From: Cyclobacteriaceae bacterium
Lineage (GTDB): Bacteria > Bacteroidota > Bacteroidia > Cytophagales > Cyclobacteriaceae
DNA length: 64,000 nucleotides
Direction: 5' to 3'
Assembly: GCA_013141055.1 (NCBI GenBank)
Contig: JABFRS010000001.1
Span: forward strand, 2,967,319 to 3,031,318
Below, one piece after another: positions 23,728 to 31,363 of this stretch. The position numbers were made by a program, and so were the translations under genes. The notes beneath the pieces are model-generated. The model was not told the DNA's origin and made no database searches. It saw nothing but the letters and a program-made list of their open reading frames with translations. How positions within the stretch are numbered: position 1 is the first letter of the stretch; each line of letters begins with the position of its first letter.

Positions 23728-23940
23728 AATGATAAGTGTTTTTAGCCAGGCTACGTAAAACGCTTAAAAATGCATGTATACTGCCTTATTTGCCCGAAAG
23801 TTAGAGGATATTCATGGATACTTTATAACTTCAAAATTGTACTACCCAAAACATAATGCCTTTCGCTAAAAGTGCCTCGTTGAATAATTAAAGCTGATTG
23901 GCGATTTTTGAAACGTTTATTAAAACTAACACCCAACATC

Positions 23941-26730
23941 ATGAGATCAATTGTTTTTTTACTAGTGCTTTTTGTATCCGCCCAGGCTATGGCTCAGGAT
24001 TGGGGAGGCCTTTTAAAAGGAGTAAAGAAAGAAGTCGGTAATGCAGGTGCCAAGAAGAAAGCACAGCTTGATTCTATTGATTTTCAGTTGGCGATGTCAG
24101 TGAATGAGAATGCAGGATTCTTTGATGTTGATAATAAAGGAGAAGGCGGCGCGACAGCCATGTACATGTTGAAAGAGCGCTCTGAAAAAACAGACTCTGA
24201 AATAGCAAGAGATACACTGGCGTGGGCGACATTCTATTATAACCGCAGATGGTTTCAGCCTGCACAACTTGCCCTTGACAATGCGAGGAGCTACATGATT
24301 AATAAAGGACTGCAAAGAGATATCAGTTATCTGAAGTCCGAAACCATGCTGGGAGTCGTTTATCTTTTGCAGGGCCGTACCGAAAAAGCTGACAGCATCA
24401 TTACAGTTTCACTTGAAAACACCCAATCAATATTGGGAGAGAAGAGTGTGGGCTATGCTGCTAACCTGAACAGCAGAGCCAAGCTTGAGGAAATGTCAGG
24501 GAAGTACAACGATGCTGAAAGGGATTTTGAAACTTCCGCACAGATATTAAAAGGGATCTTCAAGGAGAATAGCATGCAATACGCGGTGCTGCAGAATAAT
24601 AAGGCAATGCTTTATCAGACACTGGGAAGATATCCGCAAGCCGTTGAATTAATGAAAGAGGCGATCAAAAATTCTGAAGTAAAGAAGGATGATAAATCAT
24701 TCGATACAAGAAGATTTCAATCCAATCTTGCTTATCTCTATCAACTCTCGGGTGATTATGTCCAGGCCGAATCAATTCTATTAACGATCAAGAAGACATT
24801 TGAAAACCGCCTCCAAACGGTTGGACCTGAATATGCGGCATTGCTGAATCAGCTGGGGGTGCTTTATATCCAGACTAACAAGTATGATCAGTCAGAACCA
24901 TTGCTTAAGAAGTCAGCGGAACTTTATAAAAAGAAATTTACAGAAGAAAGCCCATCCTTTGCGAAAGTGCAGAATGACCTTGGAACTCTTTATAGAGTTC
25001 AGGGTAAGTTCCCGGAAGCAGAGGCTGCGTTTCTGCGATCGATAGCAATCCGAAAGAGTGTACTGGGAGAGAATCATCCTGACTATGTGAAGTCAGTGGA
25101 TAACCTGGGGATCCTGTATTGGAAGAAAGGAGATCTTACCAATGCCTATACCTACTTTAGTGAAGCGATGACAAAGTCTCTTGACTTTATCAATCAGTAT
25201 TTCCCTCCTATGAGTGAGGTGGAGAAGACAAAGTACTGGGATATTTTACAACCACGCTTCCAGCGTTTCTATGGTTATGCAGTGGAAGCCAGTGTCAGCA
25301 AGCCTGAGATATTAAAAGATGTCATGGACTATCAGATTACTACCAAGGCGCTGCTTTTGAATTCAACCAACAAGATCAAAAAGGCAATCCTTGAAAGTAA
25401 GGATAAGCAATTGATTGAAGATTATTTATCATGGATTGGTCAGAAGGAAGCTCTGGCTAAATACTATTCTCTTTCAAAATCAGAGCTGAACGACCAGAAG
25501 ATTGATATCAAGGCTCTTGAGCAGCAGGCCAACGCTTCTGAGAAAGCTTTGTCGCAACGCTCCGGCGATTTTTCCAAAGCATATTCCAGTGAGAAGATCA
25601 GCTATAAGAAAGTAGCGGGATTGCTGGGTGAAACGGAGGCACTGGTGGAGATCATTCGCGTGAGATCGTTTGACAAGGACTTCACGGATCAGTCGCGCTA
25701 CGTTGCACTTATTCTGACAAAAGGACTTGATATCCCTAAGATGGTAGTGCTTGACAATGGCAGTCAGATGGAGACAAAGTTTGCCAAGTATTATAAAAAC
25801 GCGATCATTCAGCGGATAGCGGATCAGTATTCCTATGAGCAGTATTGGTCAAAGATTGATCCATTGCTGGTGGGCAAGAAGATGATCTACTTTTCTCCTG
25901 ATGGAGTTTACAATCAGATGAATATCAATACCCTGAAGAAGACGGATGGCGACTATGTTGGAAATCGTTTTGATGTTGTGACCATTGGTAATTCCAAGGA
26001 CATCATTGCATTAAAGAGTAAGAAGGCTATTCTGAAAAAGACTGCTTTTGTGTTGGGGTTCCCCGACTATGGTGGTGCAGCAGTGGCATTGCCAGGAACA
26101 AAGGCTGAAGTAGAGAACCTTGCAAAGATCCTGAAGCTAGCGGGCTATACGGTCAGTCTGAGTGAACAGAAAGAAGCTAATGAAGCAAAGATCAAAGCAG
26201 TTAAAGGACCTGCTCTTATGCATATTGCAACACACGGATATTTTCTGGCAGATACGGATATTGGTACAGGCAATGCAATGGGCATCGATGCTGAGAATGC
26301 AAAGAACAATCCTTTGTTAAGGTCAGGACTAATTTTGTCTGGTGCACCGGATCCTGGCAAGCAGCAGGAATCTTCTGATCTTCAAAGCAACGACAACGGA
26401 ATTCTTACGGCATATGAAGCGATGAATCTTTCTCTGGAAGGAACGGATCTTATTGTTTTAAGCGCATGTGAAACAGGATTAGGAGATGTGAGGGCGGGGG
26501 AGGGAGTGTATGGATTGCAGCGCGCATTTTTAGTGGCAGGCGCCAATGCGTTGATCATGAGCTTGTGGAAAGTGGATGATGCAGCGACACAGATGCTGAT
26601 GACGAACTTCTATAATAACTGGACCAAGAGCGGTAATAAGTTAAAGGCTTTCAAGCTGGCTCAGACGCAGTTGATGGTGAAATATAAGGATCCGTATTAT
26701 TGGGGAGCGTTTGTGATGATGGGGATGTGA
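23941..26730 (+). CDS. Exported TPR-repeat + CHAT (caspase-like) domain protein
   Basis: Signal peptide from ATG 23941, TPR repeats (YAALLNQLGVLY, HPDYVKSVDNLGILY), CHAT motifs HIATHG, LSACETG, SLWKV and PYYWGAF. Confidence 0.9.
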   Translation: MRSIVFLLVLFVSAQAMAQDWGGLLKGVKKEVGNAGAKKKAQLDSIDFQLAMSVNENAGFFDVDNKGEGGATAMYMLKERSEKTDSEIARDTLAWATFYYNRRWFQPAQLALDNARSYMINKGLQRDISYLKSETMLGVVYLLQGRTEKADSIITVSLENTQSILGEKSVGYAANLNSRAKLEEMSGKYNDAERDFETSAQILKGIFKENSMQYAVLQNNKAMLYQTLGRYPQAVELMKEAIKNSEVKKDDKSFDTRRFQSNLAYLYQLSGDYVQAESILLTIKKTFENRLQTVGPEYAALLNQLGVLYIQTNKYDQSEPLLKKSAELYKKKFTEESPSFAKVQNDLGTLYRVQGKFPEAEAAFLRSIAIRKSVLGENHPDYVKSVDNLGILYWKKGDLTNAYTYFSEAMTKSLDFINQYFPPMSEVEKTKYWDILQPRFQRFYGYAVEASVSKPEILKDVMDYQITTKALLLNSTNKIKKAILESKDKQLIEDYLSWIGQKEALAKYYSLSKSELNDQKIDIKALEQQANASEKALSQRSGDFSKAYSSEKISYKKVAGLLGETEALVEIIRVRSFDKDFTDQSRYVALILTKGLDIPKMVVLDNGSQMETKFAKYYKNAIIQRIADQYSYEQYWSKIDPLLVGKKMIYFSPDGVYNQMNINTLKKTDGDYVGNRFDVVTIGNSKDIIALKSKKAILKKTAFVLGFPDYGGAAVALPGTKAEVENLAKILKLAGYTVSLSEQKEANEAKIKAVKGPALMHIATHGYFLADTDIGTGNAMGIDAENAKNNPLLRSGLILSGAPDPGKQQESSDLQSNDNGILTAYEAMNLSLEGTDLIVLSACETGLGDVRAGEGVYGLQRAFLVAGANALIMSLWKVDDAATQMLMTNFYNNWTKSGNKLKAFKLAQTQLMVKYKDPYYWGAFVMMGM

Positions 26731-26843
26731 GGTACGGACGGATAAGAAATAATAGCTTTTGAATCGAAGAAAAATGCATGACCACAGATGAAGCATAACT
26801 AAGTGCGTTTGCTTTTAAACTCAAATAGAATCGTTCATCATGT

Positions 26844-27068
26844 TGTTGCGTACCTACGGCACGCTGGTCGAACTAAACATAATCTTTCTACAAAGATTGG
26901 GTCCCGCTGGGACCAGTATCCACAAACATGTCCTATTGGGTTATTTAATGGTCGTGTATCAAAATCACCTATGACATCTCTCATTGCCGTTAGTTAACGG
27001 TCCCGGAGGGACCCAATATTTGTAGTCAACATCATCAGAATTTACACCGGTGCCGTAGGTACGCAACA
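26844..27068. repeat. Nested inverted REP-like palindromes (four elements)
   Basis: Perfect 19-bp inverted repeat TGTTGCGTACCTACGGCAC (26844-26862) / GTGCCGTAGGTACGCAACA (27050-27068) enclosing a 27-bp inverted pair CTACAAAGATTGGGTCCCGCTGGGACC / GGTCCCGGAGGGACCCAATATTTGTAG (3 mismatches). Confidence 0.85.
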
Positions 27069-27102
27069 TTTTTTTATGAAGACATTGTAGCCGATGAATA
27101 GG

Positions 27103-27250
27103 ATAACCCATTGTTTTAACCGTGGGTTATAAATTGATATCAATGCCGGTAACCATTTCAATGGTTTTCTAAACGCAGATTAATTTTGAAACCATTAAAA
27201 TGGTGGAATGAAAATATCCTATCATCATCCCACGGTTAAAACCGTGGGCT
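27103..27250. repeat. Second family of nested palindromes (CCCACGGTT..AACCGTGGG and AACCATT..AATGGTT)
   Basis: Perfect hairpin CCCACGGTT-AA-AACCGTGGG at 27229-27248, a degenerate inverted copy at 27103-27130, and an inner pair AACCATT-TC-AATGGTT (27151-27166) / ACCATT-AA-AATGGT (27191-27204). Confidence 0.8.
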
Positions 27251-27260
27251 TATAGAACCC

Positions 27261-27607
27261 ATCAGCGAAGCTGATCATCCGTGTCAATCTGCATCCTTTC
27301 TCAAGCAAAAGCTGTATTGCTTTTTTATCTGTAAATCCGTGATTACTGTTCCTGTCTAAGTTTTTCATATGCCGTTTGTTTTGCCATGCCCCAAATATGC
27401 AACCGCCGCAAAACCAAAATGTCACGAACTGTTAGAAACTGTTACGAAACTACACGAACACTCACGATCTGTTACAAACTGTTAAGAACTGTCACGAACT
27501 GTTAAGAACTGTTAGAAACTGTTAAGAAACTGACCGCCTCGTCCGGAAGCGGGCGACAAACGCCCCAAAAACTTAGAGATTTTTAGTACCTCATCAGCGA
27601 AGCTGAT
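27261..27607 (+). repeat. Two direct copies of the hairpin ATCAGC-GAA-GCTGAT
   Basis: Exact 15-nt copies at about 27261-27275 and 27593-27607, each followed by an ATCC(G/T)GTCAATC-like tract. Confidence 0.8.
27421..27531 (+). repeat. Tandem array of about 11 degenerate 10-bp units (GTYANRAACT)
   Basis: GTCACGAACT GTTAGAAACT GTTACGAAACT ... GTTACAAACT GTTAAGAACT GTCACGAACT GTTAAGAACT GTTAGAAACT GTTAAGAAACT. Confidence 0.9.
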
Positions 27608-27920
27608 AAATCCTGTCAATCCAGTATCTGCCGGATGGCTTTTTTTACCTTTTAATCCATGAATCCGTGTTTACGGTACGCCATATAGCCTTCTAGTGCT
27701 ATATGGTTCCGTTTTAGGCTTTTCAGATGTAGATTGATATTGGGCCATACCAGACTCAACCCCAAAAACCTCCAAATCACCCCAAAATCGCCACTTTTGA
27801 CTCCTCAACTCCAAACTTACACCTCCTTTTCTTCGTTTTTAGCCCATTTTGAGGGTTTTTAGGGGTGTTTCAGCTACGTTCCTCGGACGTTCCTCGTACT
27901 TTTCAGCTACCATTGCATGC

Positions 27921-28126
27921 TTTCTCTGATGTTTCTCTGATCGCTCTCTGATGTTTCCCCTATAAAAACGCTGCTTTCTCTGATAAATCTCTGATTCGTC
28001 TCTGATCACTTCCCTATAAAACGCCGTATTTCCCTATCTATTCCCTGATTCTTCTCTGATTCGCCTCTGATTGCTCTCTGATGTTTCTCTGATTCATGTC
28101 GGATCCATCTCCTTCGACTCTCTGAT
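27921..28126 (+). repeat. 11-bp-period pyrimidine-rich array with TCTCTGAT core
   Basis: Exact TCTCTGAT at 27923, 27934, 27945, 27977, 27988, 27999, 28053, 28075, 28086 and 28119, plus single-mismatch copies at 28042 and 28064. Confidence 0.9.
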
Positions 28127-28243
28127 CCTTCCCCAAGCTTATGCGGAGTCTATTCAGTCTCTACCCAGTCTCTACTCGGAGCTTATTCAGATCTTACCCA
28201 ATCTCTTGCCTGTTGACATCATGAAACTGACAACGAAGAGATG

Positions 28244-28942
28244 CTATTTTCTCTTTCCAAAGATCCTTAACAGATACAGGAATAGATTTATAAAATCAAG
28301 GTAAAGTGTAAGAGCTCCCATGATCGCTTCTTTTCGGTCTTCATCGGTGCCTTCATTGCCGATGATGTTCATATTCTTGATCTTCTGTGTATCATAAGCA
28401 GTAAGACCAACAAAGATCAAAACACCGAGATAGGTAGTGATCCAGTAGATCATTTCACTTTTCATAAAGATGTTGGCAATCGATGCGATCACTAATCCCA
28501 TCAATCCCATGAACAAAAGATTCTTCATTTTAGAAAGATCCGCATTAGTGGTGTACCCATAAATGCTCATGACTCCAAACGTACCGGCCGTTATGAAAAA
28601 TGTCGAGGCGAGAGATTCAGTTGTGTAGACCAGAAAAATTCCCGAAAGGGTTAATCCGTTTAATGCTGAATATAAAATAAAGATGAGTGTAGCCGTCGTT
28701 GCAGACATTTTGCTGACCCAGCCCGCCAATGCGCCTACGATGATGAACTGCACAACAATAATTCCAATGAATGTGATCGTGTTGCCAAAAACCATTTCCA
28801 GCAATGATGGTGAAGATGCGATGTACATGGCAACAAATCCGGTGATAATCAATGCAAATGACATCCATCCGTAGACTTTTGTCATGAACCGTTGGGTTTC
28901 TGCGATCGCTTCTTCAGCGCTCATGAGGGGTTGTTCGTTCAT
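28244..28942 (-). CDS. Bax inhibitor-1 / YccA family membrane protein
   Basis: FMTKVYGWMSFAL, FVGLTAYDTQKIK, ALTLYLDFINLFLYLLR; 7 TM helices. Confidence 0.93.
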   Translation of the reverse strand: MNEQPLMSAEEAIAETQRFMTKVYGWMSFALIITGFVAMYIASSPSLLEMVFGNTITFIGIIVVQFIIVGALAGWVSKMSATTATLIFILYSALNGLTLSGIFLVYTTESLASTFFITAGTFGVMSIYGYTTNADLSKMKNLLFMGLMGLVIASIANIFMKSEMIYWITTYLGVLIFVGLTAYDTQKIKNMNIIGNEGTDEDRKEAIMGALTLYLDFINLFLYLLRIFGKRK

Positions 28943-28966
28943 ATAGGTTTTAGGTTAGGTCAGCAA

Positions 28967-31363
28967 TCAGTTAGGTTTGAGGATCAAAATATTTTTCCAC
29001 TCTTCTTTCCCGGTCAGTTTCATGATCATACGTCTGAATTTTCCGGTAGCAAACATTTCTGCCTGATCGGAATAATGATCACTCATCACATTTCCAGACT
29101 GTCCGGTGGGAGAGACGGTTATGCCCTCATTGACGTTTGCAAAATCCGTGATCTTACGGAGAGCGGGTCCGCCATTCACAGGGTAGTATCCGGTTGTGTC
29201 CAGATCAAAATGCAAATTGTTGATCACTTCACTTCCACCCGGAACTTCAAATGGCCCTACACCGAAGAATTTGTCCAGAGGTTTCACAGATGACAATGCA
29301 TGTTTGTGTGTAAGCGTGTGAATCTTGTTCCAGGTCCAGCAGGTTGTACATTCTCCACTGGTCTCTTTTAATATTTTAAGTGTCTTAATCGCTGACTGCT
29401 CAATAATATCCTGCCTCTCTTCCACAACATCTTTTGTTCTCACATCATCCCACCATGGAGATAAATTATTCTTAATAAATGTCTCGTAAGAATTTTTTGG
29501 AATGGACGATTTCATAATCGCATCAAAGGCATCCGAACCCAGCTCATCCTCCATGGATCGCACCATGATCTGTGAAAGCATATTGTAATAAACGGATGGA
29601 GCAACGTCATTCAGCTGGTGATCACCATCCCAGTCCTTAAGAACCTTTGCCATCTCCTTGAATTCCGGTTTGCCTGTGAAGTCCAGTATCGAAGCGATCT
29701 CTTTTGCAATGGCAGGATGCATATTGGAAACAACGTCAAGGTTTATTGCCTTCATGTCATCTACGGTCCACTTTCTCTCTTTACTGAGAAGTTCAACAAT
29801 TCTTCCAGAGCGGGCACGGGGATAATAATATCCGGGATACAAAACTCCATCCACCGTATCAGGCTGATTGTTTGCAGAATAGACATATCCCCACGGAGGA
29901 TTGATGGCCTGTGGATTTTTTGAGAAGTCGTAGAACCCGATGTATTCATCTTTTCCATACGCCCCATCGAGGAATATCTTGGAGTTTACATGAGTGGGTC
30001 GGACCGGTAATTTGGCTACTGCCCACCATGCGATATTCCCGGCAACATCAGCATACATAACATTCAATCCCGGAGAAGAGAATAGTTCGGCGGCTTTGGC
30101 TGCATCTGCAAAGCTGGTTGCATGATTTAACTGATAAGCGGCCTGCAGTGATTCATTACTAAGATGATTGAGCATCCACGAAAGTGAAACAACGGTAGTA
30201 GCAGGCACTGTCTTTTCCATAATGCCGTTAATGATCGGGCCGTGACGCGTTGATTTGATTGCGAGTGTCAGATCTTTTTCACCTTTGATCTTTATTATTT
30301 CATCGCGGGTAGTGATGGCTTCCCACTGACCATTAAACATCACCTGATCAGGATTCTTCGGATCGATTGTTTCCGTAAAGAAATCGGTATCATCATTTTC
30401 AAACATGGTCAATCCCCAGCCGCAGAATTCATTATTGCCAAGCAAGGCAAAGGGAACTCCTGCGAGATGATGTCCATAAAAATTGAAACCCGGATAAGAC
30501 AGCGATGCTTCATACCATACTGCTGGTTGTGAGAATCCGATGTGCGTGTCGTTTGCCAGAATGGGAAATCCTGACTTGGTATGTTCACCTGAAACCACCC
30601 AGCCATTGCTTCCCGACCAAAGAGGTATTGGAATTTTTTGTAAAGCTTCCGAAAGAGCCGCTATAAGAGAATCTTTCTCGAGTGTTTTTACCGGGCCTTT
30701 AAAACTTTTGATTCTGACTGCATCTCCGGGAGTCTGAATGGCAAGATCTTTTAAATAACTTTCACCCAGTTCAGTCTTAATTTTATTGATGACAGGATCG
30801 GCTCTGATTCCTTCGGCGAAACCAAATGACATGAAACCGATGGCCAGATAAATATCTTCCGGTACAAATTCAGTTTTGGGGATTCCCATGATCATGAATT
30901 CAAGGGGAGTCTTTCCGGTCCGCACGAATTCGTTCACACCTTTCTGATAAGACAGGGCAGCCTTCTGAAATGCTGATGAATCCTTACTGAGATATTTTTG
31001 AGCGTGAGTAGCAGCAAACTTATTGATGCCGAGTGTTCTGAAAAGCTTGTCTACAGGAAGCAGATCTTTTCCAAGAACTTCTGAAAGTCTTCCACCGGCA
31101 GCTCTTCGGATCATTTCCATTTGAAACAAACGATCCTGAGCATGAATATAACCCAGAGCAAAATAGGCATCTTCTGCTGTTTGTGCTGAGATATGAGGAA
31201 CGCCGTATTCATCGTAACCAACACTGACTTCTGCTGTCAATCCCTTTAAGGTTACTTCACCGGAATATTTGGGAGAAGTAGTTCGCAGATAGATATAAAC
31301 TCCCAGGACAAATACGGCAAGCAGGATAACAATGCCGATTAGAATTCTTTTCAGTATTTTCAT
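28967..31363 (-). CDS. Penicillin acylase family Ntn hydrolase (S45)
   Basis: GYIHAQDRLFQME, catalytic GSNGW...ILANDTH, HYSDQAEMF; N-terminal membrane anchor. Confidence 0.92.
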   Translation of the reverse strand: MKILKRILIGIVILLAVFVLGVYIYLRTTSPKYSGEVTLKGLTAEVSVGYDEYGVPHISAQTAEDAYFALGYIHAQDRLFQMEMIRRAAGGRLSEVLGKDLLPVDKLFRTLGINKFAATHAQKYLSKDSSAFQKAALSYQKGVNEFVRTGKTPLEFMIMGIPKTEFVPEDIYLAIGFMSFGFAEGIRADPVINKIKTELGESYLKDLAIQTPGDAVRIKSFKGPVKTLEKDSLIAALSEALQKIPIPLWSGSNGWVVSGEHTKSGFPILANDTHIGFSQPAVWYEASLSYPGFNFYGHHLAGVPFALLGNNEFCGWGLTMFENDDTDFFTETIDPKNPDQVMFNGQWEAITTRDEIIKIKGEKDLTLAIKSTRHGPIINGIMEKTVPATTVVSLSWMLNHLSNESLQAAYQLNHATSFADAAKAAELFSSPGLNVMYADVAGNIAWWAVAKLPVRPTHVNSKIFLDGAYGKDEYIGFYDFSKNPQAINPPWGYVYSANNQPDTVDGVLYPGYYYPRARSGRIVELLSKERKWTVDDMKAINLDVVSNMHPAIAKEIASILDFTGKPEFKEMAKVLKDWDGDHQLNDVAPSVYYNMLSQIMVRSMEDELGSDAFDAIMKSSIPKNSYETFIKNNLSPWWDDVRTKDVVEERQDIIEQSAIKTLKILKETSGECTTCWTWNKIHTLTHKHALSSVKPLDKFFGVGPFEVPGGSEVINNLHFDLDTTGYYPVNGGPALRKITDFANVNEGITVSPTGQSGNVMSDHYSDQAEMFATGKFRRMIMKLTGKEEWKNILILKPN

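Follow-up and report, generated by a model that had tools for sequence, protein, structure and literature searches.

The 1.5-kb gap at positions 26731-28243 of the DNA stretch analyzed here (64,000 nucleotides, C1:2967319-3031318, hereafter the window) holds a non-coding island, one copy of a repeat mosaic that was pre-assembled and not put together in place. The genome is that of a Cyclobacteriaceae bacterium (Cytophagales) and consists of two contigs or replicons (C1 and C2; 3.26 and 1.38 Mb, 42% G+C). The right 0.8 kb of the island (27392-28205) is, judged by its homology, a paralogue without genes of a divergent control region, the one between an operon for proteins of a family named X here and the gene of a protein named Y. 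We consider it somewhat probable that the island as a whole is an orphan control region joined to hairpins resembling REPINs (doublets of repetitive extragenic palindromic, REP, units), in which the tandem arrays would be phased protein-binding sites. The blocks of the island, A to G, are listed in Table 1. Positions without a contig name are those of the window; modules C1 and C2 of the island are named as such and are distinct from the two contigs.

The intact counterpart of the right part is found at C2:325240-327521. An Amidase_3 gene and the X genes X5 and X4 (minus strand) are followed there by a D-family array, a segment like module C2, the leader E, a shortened F array and then the Y gene (plus strand). 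This D-family array (C2:326635-326831) has 20 units of 10 bp and is located 190 bp upstream of X4. The island is homologous to the X4-Y intergenic region over the D array, the 55 nt that follow it, the hairpin region at 27678-27721 and E-F. The box CATATTTG stands 23-24 nt after D towards X4 and is invariant at 6 of 6 D loci. At the X4-type loci of the studied genome, of two related genomes (G007 and G056) and of a metagenome contig, it extends as TTTGAC(C/T)CAAG. The island shows the arrangement found upstream of X operons, i.e. a 10-bp array followed at 23-24 nt by a box of the form nAnnTTTG, in DNA homologous to the X4 upstream region. It contains neither the conserved leader ACCCAAGCA nor an X gene. 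The box may be a promoter element. The Y protein (195 aa) has a DUF4248-like helix-turn-helix (HTH) N-terminus; we take its hydrophobic C-terminal part to be membrane segments. Downstream of Y (L006:7765-9095), near-identical open reading frames (ORFs) of 111, 111 and 75 aa at 550-bp spacing represent a tandem duplication.

This organization is conserved in G007 and G056. In both genomes a Y homologue (30–35% identical, E = 1e-15 and 1e-24) is divergent from X genes, and the third gene of the X operon is confirmed as an amidase in G007 and is a 210-aa ORF in G056. The proximal 10-bp array is located 177–201 bp upstream of X, with unrelated units in the two species (TTTCGCGGAG in G007, TTTTGGAACA in G056); in G007, an 11-bp array additionally separates Y from the 10-bp array. 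The layout Y, 10-bp array, TTTGACyCAAG box, X-X is kept despite wholly different units. No Y gene was found paired with X1 or X3, two further X genes of the studied genome.

The X family was recognized by tracing the CTAGGTTC array family in the two closest relatives, which led to the gene adjacent to the array. The protein (about 187 aa) belongs to no Pfam, NCBIfam or PHROG family, and a profile search of public data gave 3,618 clusters at 50% identity. Its AlphaFold model (pLDDT 83.6) combines an N-terminus that is basic and disordered with three helices and an Ig-like sandwich. Five X genes are present in the studied genome, distributed over four loci: X1 (C1:299459-300019), X2 (C1:553954-554499), X3 (C2:276105-276671) and the X4-X5 pair. 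All four loci have a 10- or 11-bp array 150–230 bp upstream, and its unit is different at each of them (TAATTAGGTTC, CACGGTCAmCC, CTAGGTTCnnn and AACTGTTAnn, the last being the D family). Elsewhere, arrays with a period of 10 or 11 bp, or a multiple, were likewise present upstream of X for 6 of the 6 X homologues sampled first and at 9 of 12 loci of the same genus, whose genomes contain 3–10 X copies each. Taken together with the four loci of the studied genome, the arrays are located 94–230 bp upstream of X, against a background of about 0.7% per 400 bp. X genes are thus regularly preceded by 10/11-bp arrays, with a unit that changes with the paralogue. In another family of the order, 20 X loci gave an upstream array only once and an 11-bp array 50–90 bp downstream five times; the upstream position rule is therefore not universal. 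The downstream arrays were seen in a high-G+C genus within that order (L081, L083, L101, L102 and L106), and a conserved GGAAATATyCACTTTCC motif comes after them. In close relatives, X copies are often found at contig ends and some carry stop codons. No X remnants were found beside F arrays, and the similarity of the E-box to the X1 and X2 upstream regions is short (10–15 nt, E = 0.4–1.6) and only suggestive.

A genome-wide scan for tandem repeats revealed other multi-locus families with an 11-bp unit: about 15 loci have CTAGGTTCnnn arrays, and CCTTATCGAGA and CACGGTCAmCC have about 8 loci each. Several CTAGGTTCnnn arrays are located 100–300 bp from A-type REPINs, and few arrays of these further families adjoin X genes. 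Examples of arrays of these families are those at C2:275810-275959, C2:466002-466186, C1:1023788-1023843 and C1:977730-977774.

Apart from the last 38 nt, all blocks of the island have several copies in the genome. Their recurrence in so many places puts the blocks far beyond chance. The original prediction is supported in that the blocks are dispersed, non-coding repeat families. E-F is found at 13 loci (five on contig C1, eight on contig C2) and D at six. Genome-wide there are about 12 doublets of block A, about 13 of block B, about 19 occurrences of the CATCAGC/GCTGATG stem with a variable loop (GAA, GTA, GCA or AAA) and about 25 copies of the GTAGC...GCTAC hairpin family. The complete order A-B-C1-D-C2-E-F, linkers included, recurs at C2:644042-645421 and C2:1268327-1269723 with 84–86% identity. 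Three loci have the full mosaic in colinear form and five the C-D-C-E-F part; at the remaining loci the right end is kept but the left is different. The same order with the same linkers at two other loci means that the mosaic was copied as a block and not built by separate insertions here, so the earlier suggestion of a landing site where elements accumulate finds no support in the form in which it was put. Around the 13 E-F copies we found no conserved gene and no transposase or integrase; the nearby genes (DUF892, esterase, PorP/SprF, aconitase, TonB receptor and others) are unrelated. A search for IS91-type Y2 transposases gave no match, but its control failed too, making it uninformative. 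Among 176 genomes of the same genus E-F is absent except for a 26–45-nt motif, JGI metagenomes contain no exact match, and searches with the array patterns retrieved only unrelated short arrays from GTDB genomes and metagenomes. The motif TTTTTAGCCCATTTTGAGGGTTT (27836-27858) occurs in ten other genomes of the genus with 83–93% identity and in unrelated contexts (L041-L049), which include sites immediately upstream of start codons, next to an integrase gene and in the vicinity of an ssb gene.

The 13 E-F copies are 82–97% identical and form the subfamilies {a,b}, {e,f,i} and {d,j,l}. Conservation among them reaches 90–99% over 27826-28007 and falls toward both ends. The F array holds 11 exact CTCTGAT cores, and the mean pairwise diversity of the core columns is 0.053 versus 0.239 for the other columns (permutation p < 5e-5, 13 loci); the tail units retain TAnnCnG. 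It is therefore the cores, and not the period alone, that are under constraint. The copies themselves may be under this constraint, or it may have acted in the lineage from which they arose.

The left 0.6 kb consists of hairpin elements of the REP/REPIN type, formed by single-stranded DNA (A, B, small C and GTAGC hairpins). The outer inverted repeat of block A matches at 19 of 19 positions and the inner one, of 27 nt, at 89%; as single-stranded DNA the block folds at -49.8 kcal/mol (z = -8.0 versus shuffles). Block B has 20-nt arms, each palindromic, and an inner inverted repeat of 16 nt (z = -4.9). The C module, present as two direct repeats, combines a CATCAGC-GAA-GCTGAT hairpin with ATCC(G)TGTCAATC, a T-run hairpin and ATCCGTG. 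The folding of the small hairpins, too, is significant against shuffles. The partners of these hairpins would be the Y1 HUH transposases of the genome, i.e. two single-copy REPtron-like genes and a two-copy insertion sequence (IS) of the IS200 type. Four Y1_Tnp genes, R1 to R4, are present. A check of their proximity to the blocks, proposed at the outset together with REP-associated tyrosine transposases (RAYTs), was rewarding: A arms were found next to one gene, and another has B arms at either side. R1 (C1:294318-294662, single-copy) has three tandem A arms 200–700 bp upstream, in three head-to-tail 216-bp units (C1:293605-294114) that each contain one outer and one inner A arm. R2 (C1:2780941-2781279, single-copy) is surrounded by four B arms. 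R3 and R4 belong to 99%-identical copies of a 745-bp IS200-like element (C2:65283-66027 and C1:552652-553396). The element is bounded by terminal inverted repeats of 28 bp and contains a GCGAAGC hairpin close to its left end. GTAGC hairpins and C-like modules adjoin the copies, with two C-like modules abutting the right end of R4. After the copy at C1:552652-553396 come two C-like modules of 133 bp in tandem; X2 is 560 bp from this copy.

R1 and R2 pass the NCBIfam IS200 model (78.5 and 66.7 bits for a cut-off of 55). A and B form dispersed inverted doublets of hairpin-forming units in intergenic DNA, as REPINs do, and R1 with A, like R2 with B, is a single-copy Y1 gene flanked by the same REP family, which is the layout of a REPtron. 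This shows Y1 transposases that are classed as IS200-type yet organized like REPtrons. Regarding the GT[AG]G tetranucleotide found at the 5' foot of REP hairpins, the A outer arm has GTAGG and the small hairpins GTAGC, and the B arms are without GTAG. The closest known system for A and B is that of the REPtrons, which associate REPs, bacterial interspersed mosaic elements (BIMEs) or REPINs with a RAYT (Nunvar 2010; Bertels & Rainey 2011, PMC3116915; Quentin et al. 2018, PMC6006769). As in these, A and B are intergenic multicopy hairpin doublets, each family beside its own single-copy Y1 HUH gene, and the island as a whole mixes several hairpin families like a BIME. In contrast with REP/BIME/RAYT systems, the Y1 proteins score as IS200, and the doublets are few (about 12–13) and long (150–225 bp). 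The mosaic moreover carries long tandem arrays, which REP/BIME systems do not have.

In the right part of the island, the 10-bp array stands directly upstream of a left-pointing promoter-like box and the 11-bp array points to the right. Both are unstructured as single strands (z = +0.65 for D; minimum free energy of -0.9 kcal/mol over 150 nt and z = +1.46 for F). We propose that the arrays could be helically phased sites, one per DNA turn on one helix face, for a sequence-specific DNA-binding protein, with Y or X itself as the most obvious candidate. The orphan copies, including the island, would then be amplified control modules, perhaps decoy sites or portable promoters. A wider proposal can be formulated, in which the phased 10/11-bp arrays would be the cis partner of the X family, with units specific to each paralogue that act as sequence-specific landing pads for X or Y; one such control region would have been amplified in this species into the 13 orphans, which would be decoys or portable promoters. 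We advance it tentatively, as a possibility about which doubt prevails.

Several observations weigh against the interpretation as an orphan control region with binding sites. The X model gives generic Ig-like structural matches only, with no recognizable DNA-binding fold, and the match of Y to DUF4248 is weak. The box deviates from the TAnnTTTG consensus at the first base, and by eye no good -33 element was seen. The orientation of E-F relative to adjacent genes is mixed, 7 to 6 among the 13 copies, and the copies are therefore not simply promoters for the next gene. R1 and R2 reach only 27 and 31 bits with the RAYT model NF047646, for a cut-off of 80 bits. Because they pass the IS200 model and fall well below this cut-off, A and B are called REPIN-like here and not members of a RAYT system. 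Alignment of the copies revealed neither terminal inverted repeats nor target-site duplications, whether at the mosaic's ends or at those of E-F. Finally, orthologous arrays swap their unit sequence between species, and phasing rather than sequence could matter.

Among the other explanations, the one that survives best, although we hold it to be unlikely, is a purely selfish, MITE-like element with an internal minisatellite (MITEs are miniature inverted-repeat transposable elements). E-F and the larger mosaic would be moved in trans by a transposase binding the cores, and the likeness to the X operon would stem from a copy that landed there. The 13 copies are intergenic and species-restricted, form subfamilies and are adjacent to unrelated genes; they vary at the left but keep the same right end. 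A precedent exists in BrickBuilt of Porphyromonas gingivalis, an intergenic MITE of about 19 copies with a leader, a spacer-less tandem repeat and a tail, for which promoter elements have been reported (Klein et al. 2015, PMC4596501). E-F is likewise intergenic, species-restricted and from the Bacteroidota, with a leader/repeat/tail layout, the comparison being one of layout and not of sequence. However, the terminal inverted repeats and target-site duplication that characterize MITEs were seen neither for the mosaic nor for E-F, and none of the copies, given their range of identity, is near-identical to another. Nor would a chance landing easily explain why the position of the array upstream of X is kept across species with different units. 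E-F further differs from BrickBuilt, which has a 23-nt unit and small inverted-repeat ends, by its 10/11-bp units with a conserved core and a variable spacer, and by being paralogous to a gene-linked control region.

Two further possibilities appear improbable to us, to the same degree. The first is a structural role of the DNA that does not depend on its sequence, where the helical phasing at 10 or 11 bp (curvature or writhe upstream of promoters, nucleoid organization) and not the core would matter. The retention of the 10-bp period and its position with unrelated units by orthologous X operons in three species is in line with this, as is the coexistence of several unrelated 11-bp unit families in one genome. 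On the other hand, strong conservation of the 7-bp cores across the 13 diverged copies contrasts with drift in the 3–4-nt spacers, which points to sequence recognition. The second possibility is a role at the RNA level. If the island or E-F is transcribed, the unstructured F repeat (UCUCUGAU every 11 nt) could be a protein sponge or a Rho-loading (rut-like) tract that ends read-through. The F plus strand, 69% pyrimidine with C about twice as frequent as G and essentially structure-free, would suit such a function, and so would the plus-strand T-run hairpins upstream and the location between convergent genes. Against it, there is no Rfam family, E shows no covariation-supported fold among the copies as a conserved RNA or DNA hairpin, and the orientation to the upstream gene is inconsistent across the 13 copies. 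An assembly artefact, i.e. collapsed or chimeric repeats misjoined at this locus, can practically be dismissed: the region is wholly made of repeats and draft contigs of relatives often end beside X genes and arrays, but this assembly consists of two large contigs, the same block order is found at three loci with different flanks, and the paralogous copies differ by 3–18% and are therefore distinguishable.

If the arrays of the orphan control region are indeed binding sites, known systems offer parallels. ParR binds ten 11-bp iterons of plasmid R1 parC, and the pho boxes of the PhoB/OmpR family have a 7-bp core and a 4-bp spacer. The island arrays may be compared with these sites, in that each turn of the helix has one short conserved core with a short spacer, the units form head-to-tail repeats, and the array is placed directly upstream of a promoter, in the island a candidate one. 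They differ by their 11–31 units and many orphan copies. The D unit CTGTTAn resembles the pho-box core CTGTCAT, which may serve as a lead. Small uncharacterized genes with short-period arrays, and many gene-less arrays, are also a feature of the cyanobacterial heptamers of the short tandemly repeated repetitive (STRR) type and of cassettes for the 23S rRNA intervening-sequence protein. These have a 7–8-bp period and inverted arms, unlike the X arrays, which are direct, of 10/11 bp and on one side (upstream). The single 23S_rRNA_IVP (four-helix-bundle) gene of the studied genome (C2:501373-501681) is bracketed by inverted 8-bp arrays of the ACGTGTAG type (L050:1405-1437 and 1929-2002).

In the literature searched, we found no description of a protein/iteron system of the X/Y-array kind. 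Taken alone, the island is a BIME-like repeat pile of a known kind. What is new is that both arrays appear to derive from the conserved control region of an operon, and that the main gene family of this operon numbers thousands of members. This gives a testable handle on short-period tandem arrays in the intergenic DNA of Bacteroidota, namely a defined locus, two candidate binders and 13 orphan copies whose cores are constrained.

Table 1. Component parts of the island (positions in the window).
Feature	Positions	Strand	Remarks
Left linker	26754..26843		Similarity to two other full mosaic copies begins at 26754, 24 nt past the CHAT stop codon
Block A, REPIN-like double-nested palindrome	26844..27068		Outer arms 26844-26862 / 27050-27068; inner arms 26888-26914 / 26999-27025
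Block B, second REPIN-like doublet	27103..27253		Arms 27107-27126 / 27229-27248; inner inverted repeat 27152-27167 / 27189-27204
Module C1	27260..27345	+	GCGAAGC-type mini-hairpin 27260-27275, ATCCGTGTCAATC, T-run hairpin 27303-27326, ATCCGTG
Box CATATTTG (minus-strand reading)	27392..27399	-	23-24 nt from D array; candidate Bacteroidota -7 promoter element facing left
D array	27416..27535	-	About 11.5 units, period 10 bp; AACTGTTAnn on plus strand
Post-D segment	27536..27590		91% identity to counterpart upstream of X4 (55 nt, E = 2e-15)
Module C2, second C copy	27592..27677	+	Direct-repeat families shared with module C1
Small REP-like hairpin CATATAGC...GCTATATGG	27682..27706		z = -4.9; related to GTAGC...GCTAC hairpin family
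E leader of E-F element	27745..27864	+	E-box CCCCAAAAACCTCC 27760-27773, inverse 27851-27865, motif 27836-27858
F array	27865..28205	+	About 31 units of 11 bp; unit drifts from ACGTTTCTCGG to TTCTCTGATnn to TAnnCnG-type
Unique spacer (block G)	28206..28243		Single-copy, reaches Bax1-I stop codon; similarity among copies stops near 28205

The island is flanked on the left by a 940-aa ORF (23908-26730, plus strand) with CHAT and TPR domains and on the right by a 232-aa ORF (28244-28942, minus strand) of the Bax1-I family (YccA-like), which is convergent with it. The longest ORFs in the gap are only 42–77 aa and none has a Pfam family. The original prediction of a 1.5-kb gap between convergent genes devoid of a credible ORF was thus correct, and so was that of several distinct repeat types, as blocks A, B, C, D and F were located by repeat tools and direct reading. 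From its list of blocks, the palindromes, the GAA-loop hairpins and both arrays stand; the further inverted repeats placed before F are weak, the E-box pair folding no better than shuffles (z = -0.9), and the 11-bp array is longer than first stated (extent in Table 1). No match at E<=1 was obtained with the Rfam 15 covariance models on 25500-29500. In a sigma-70 promoter scan, which does not model Bacteroidota promoters, matches were no commoner than in shuffles. GC-skew profiles of the genome gave no clear origin or terminus.

The junction between the CHAT and YccA-like genes was compared with that of relatives, as had been suggested. Two syntenic relatives, G056 and G014, have four genes between these two (L037:6126-9154 and L038:7214-8389, respectively), a set that is absent from the junction in the studied genome. 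It comprises an aminotransferase gene (392 aa), a small ORF and genes for proteins of 291 and 219 aa, the former presumably an inositol oxygenase.

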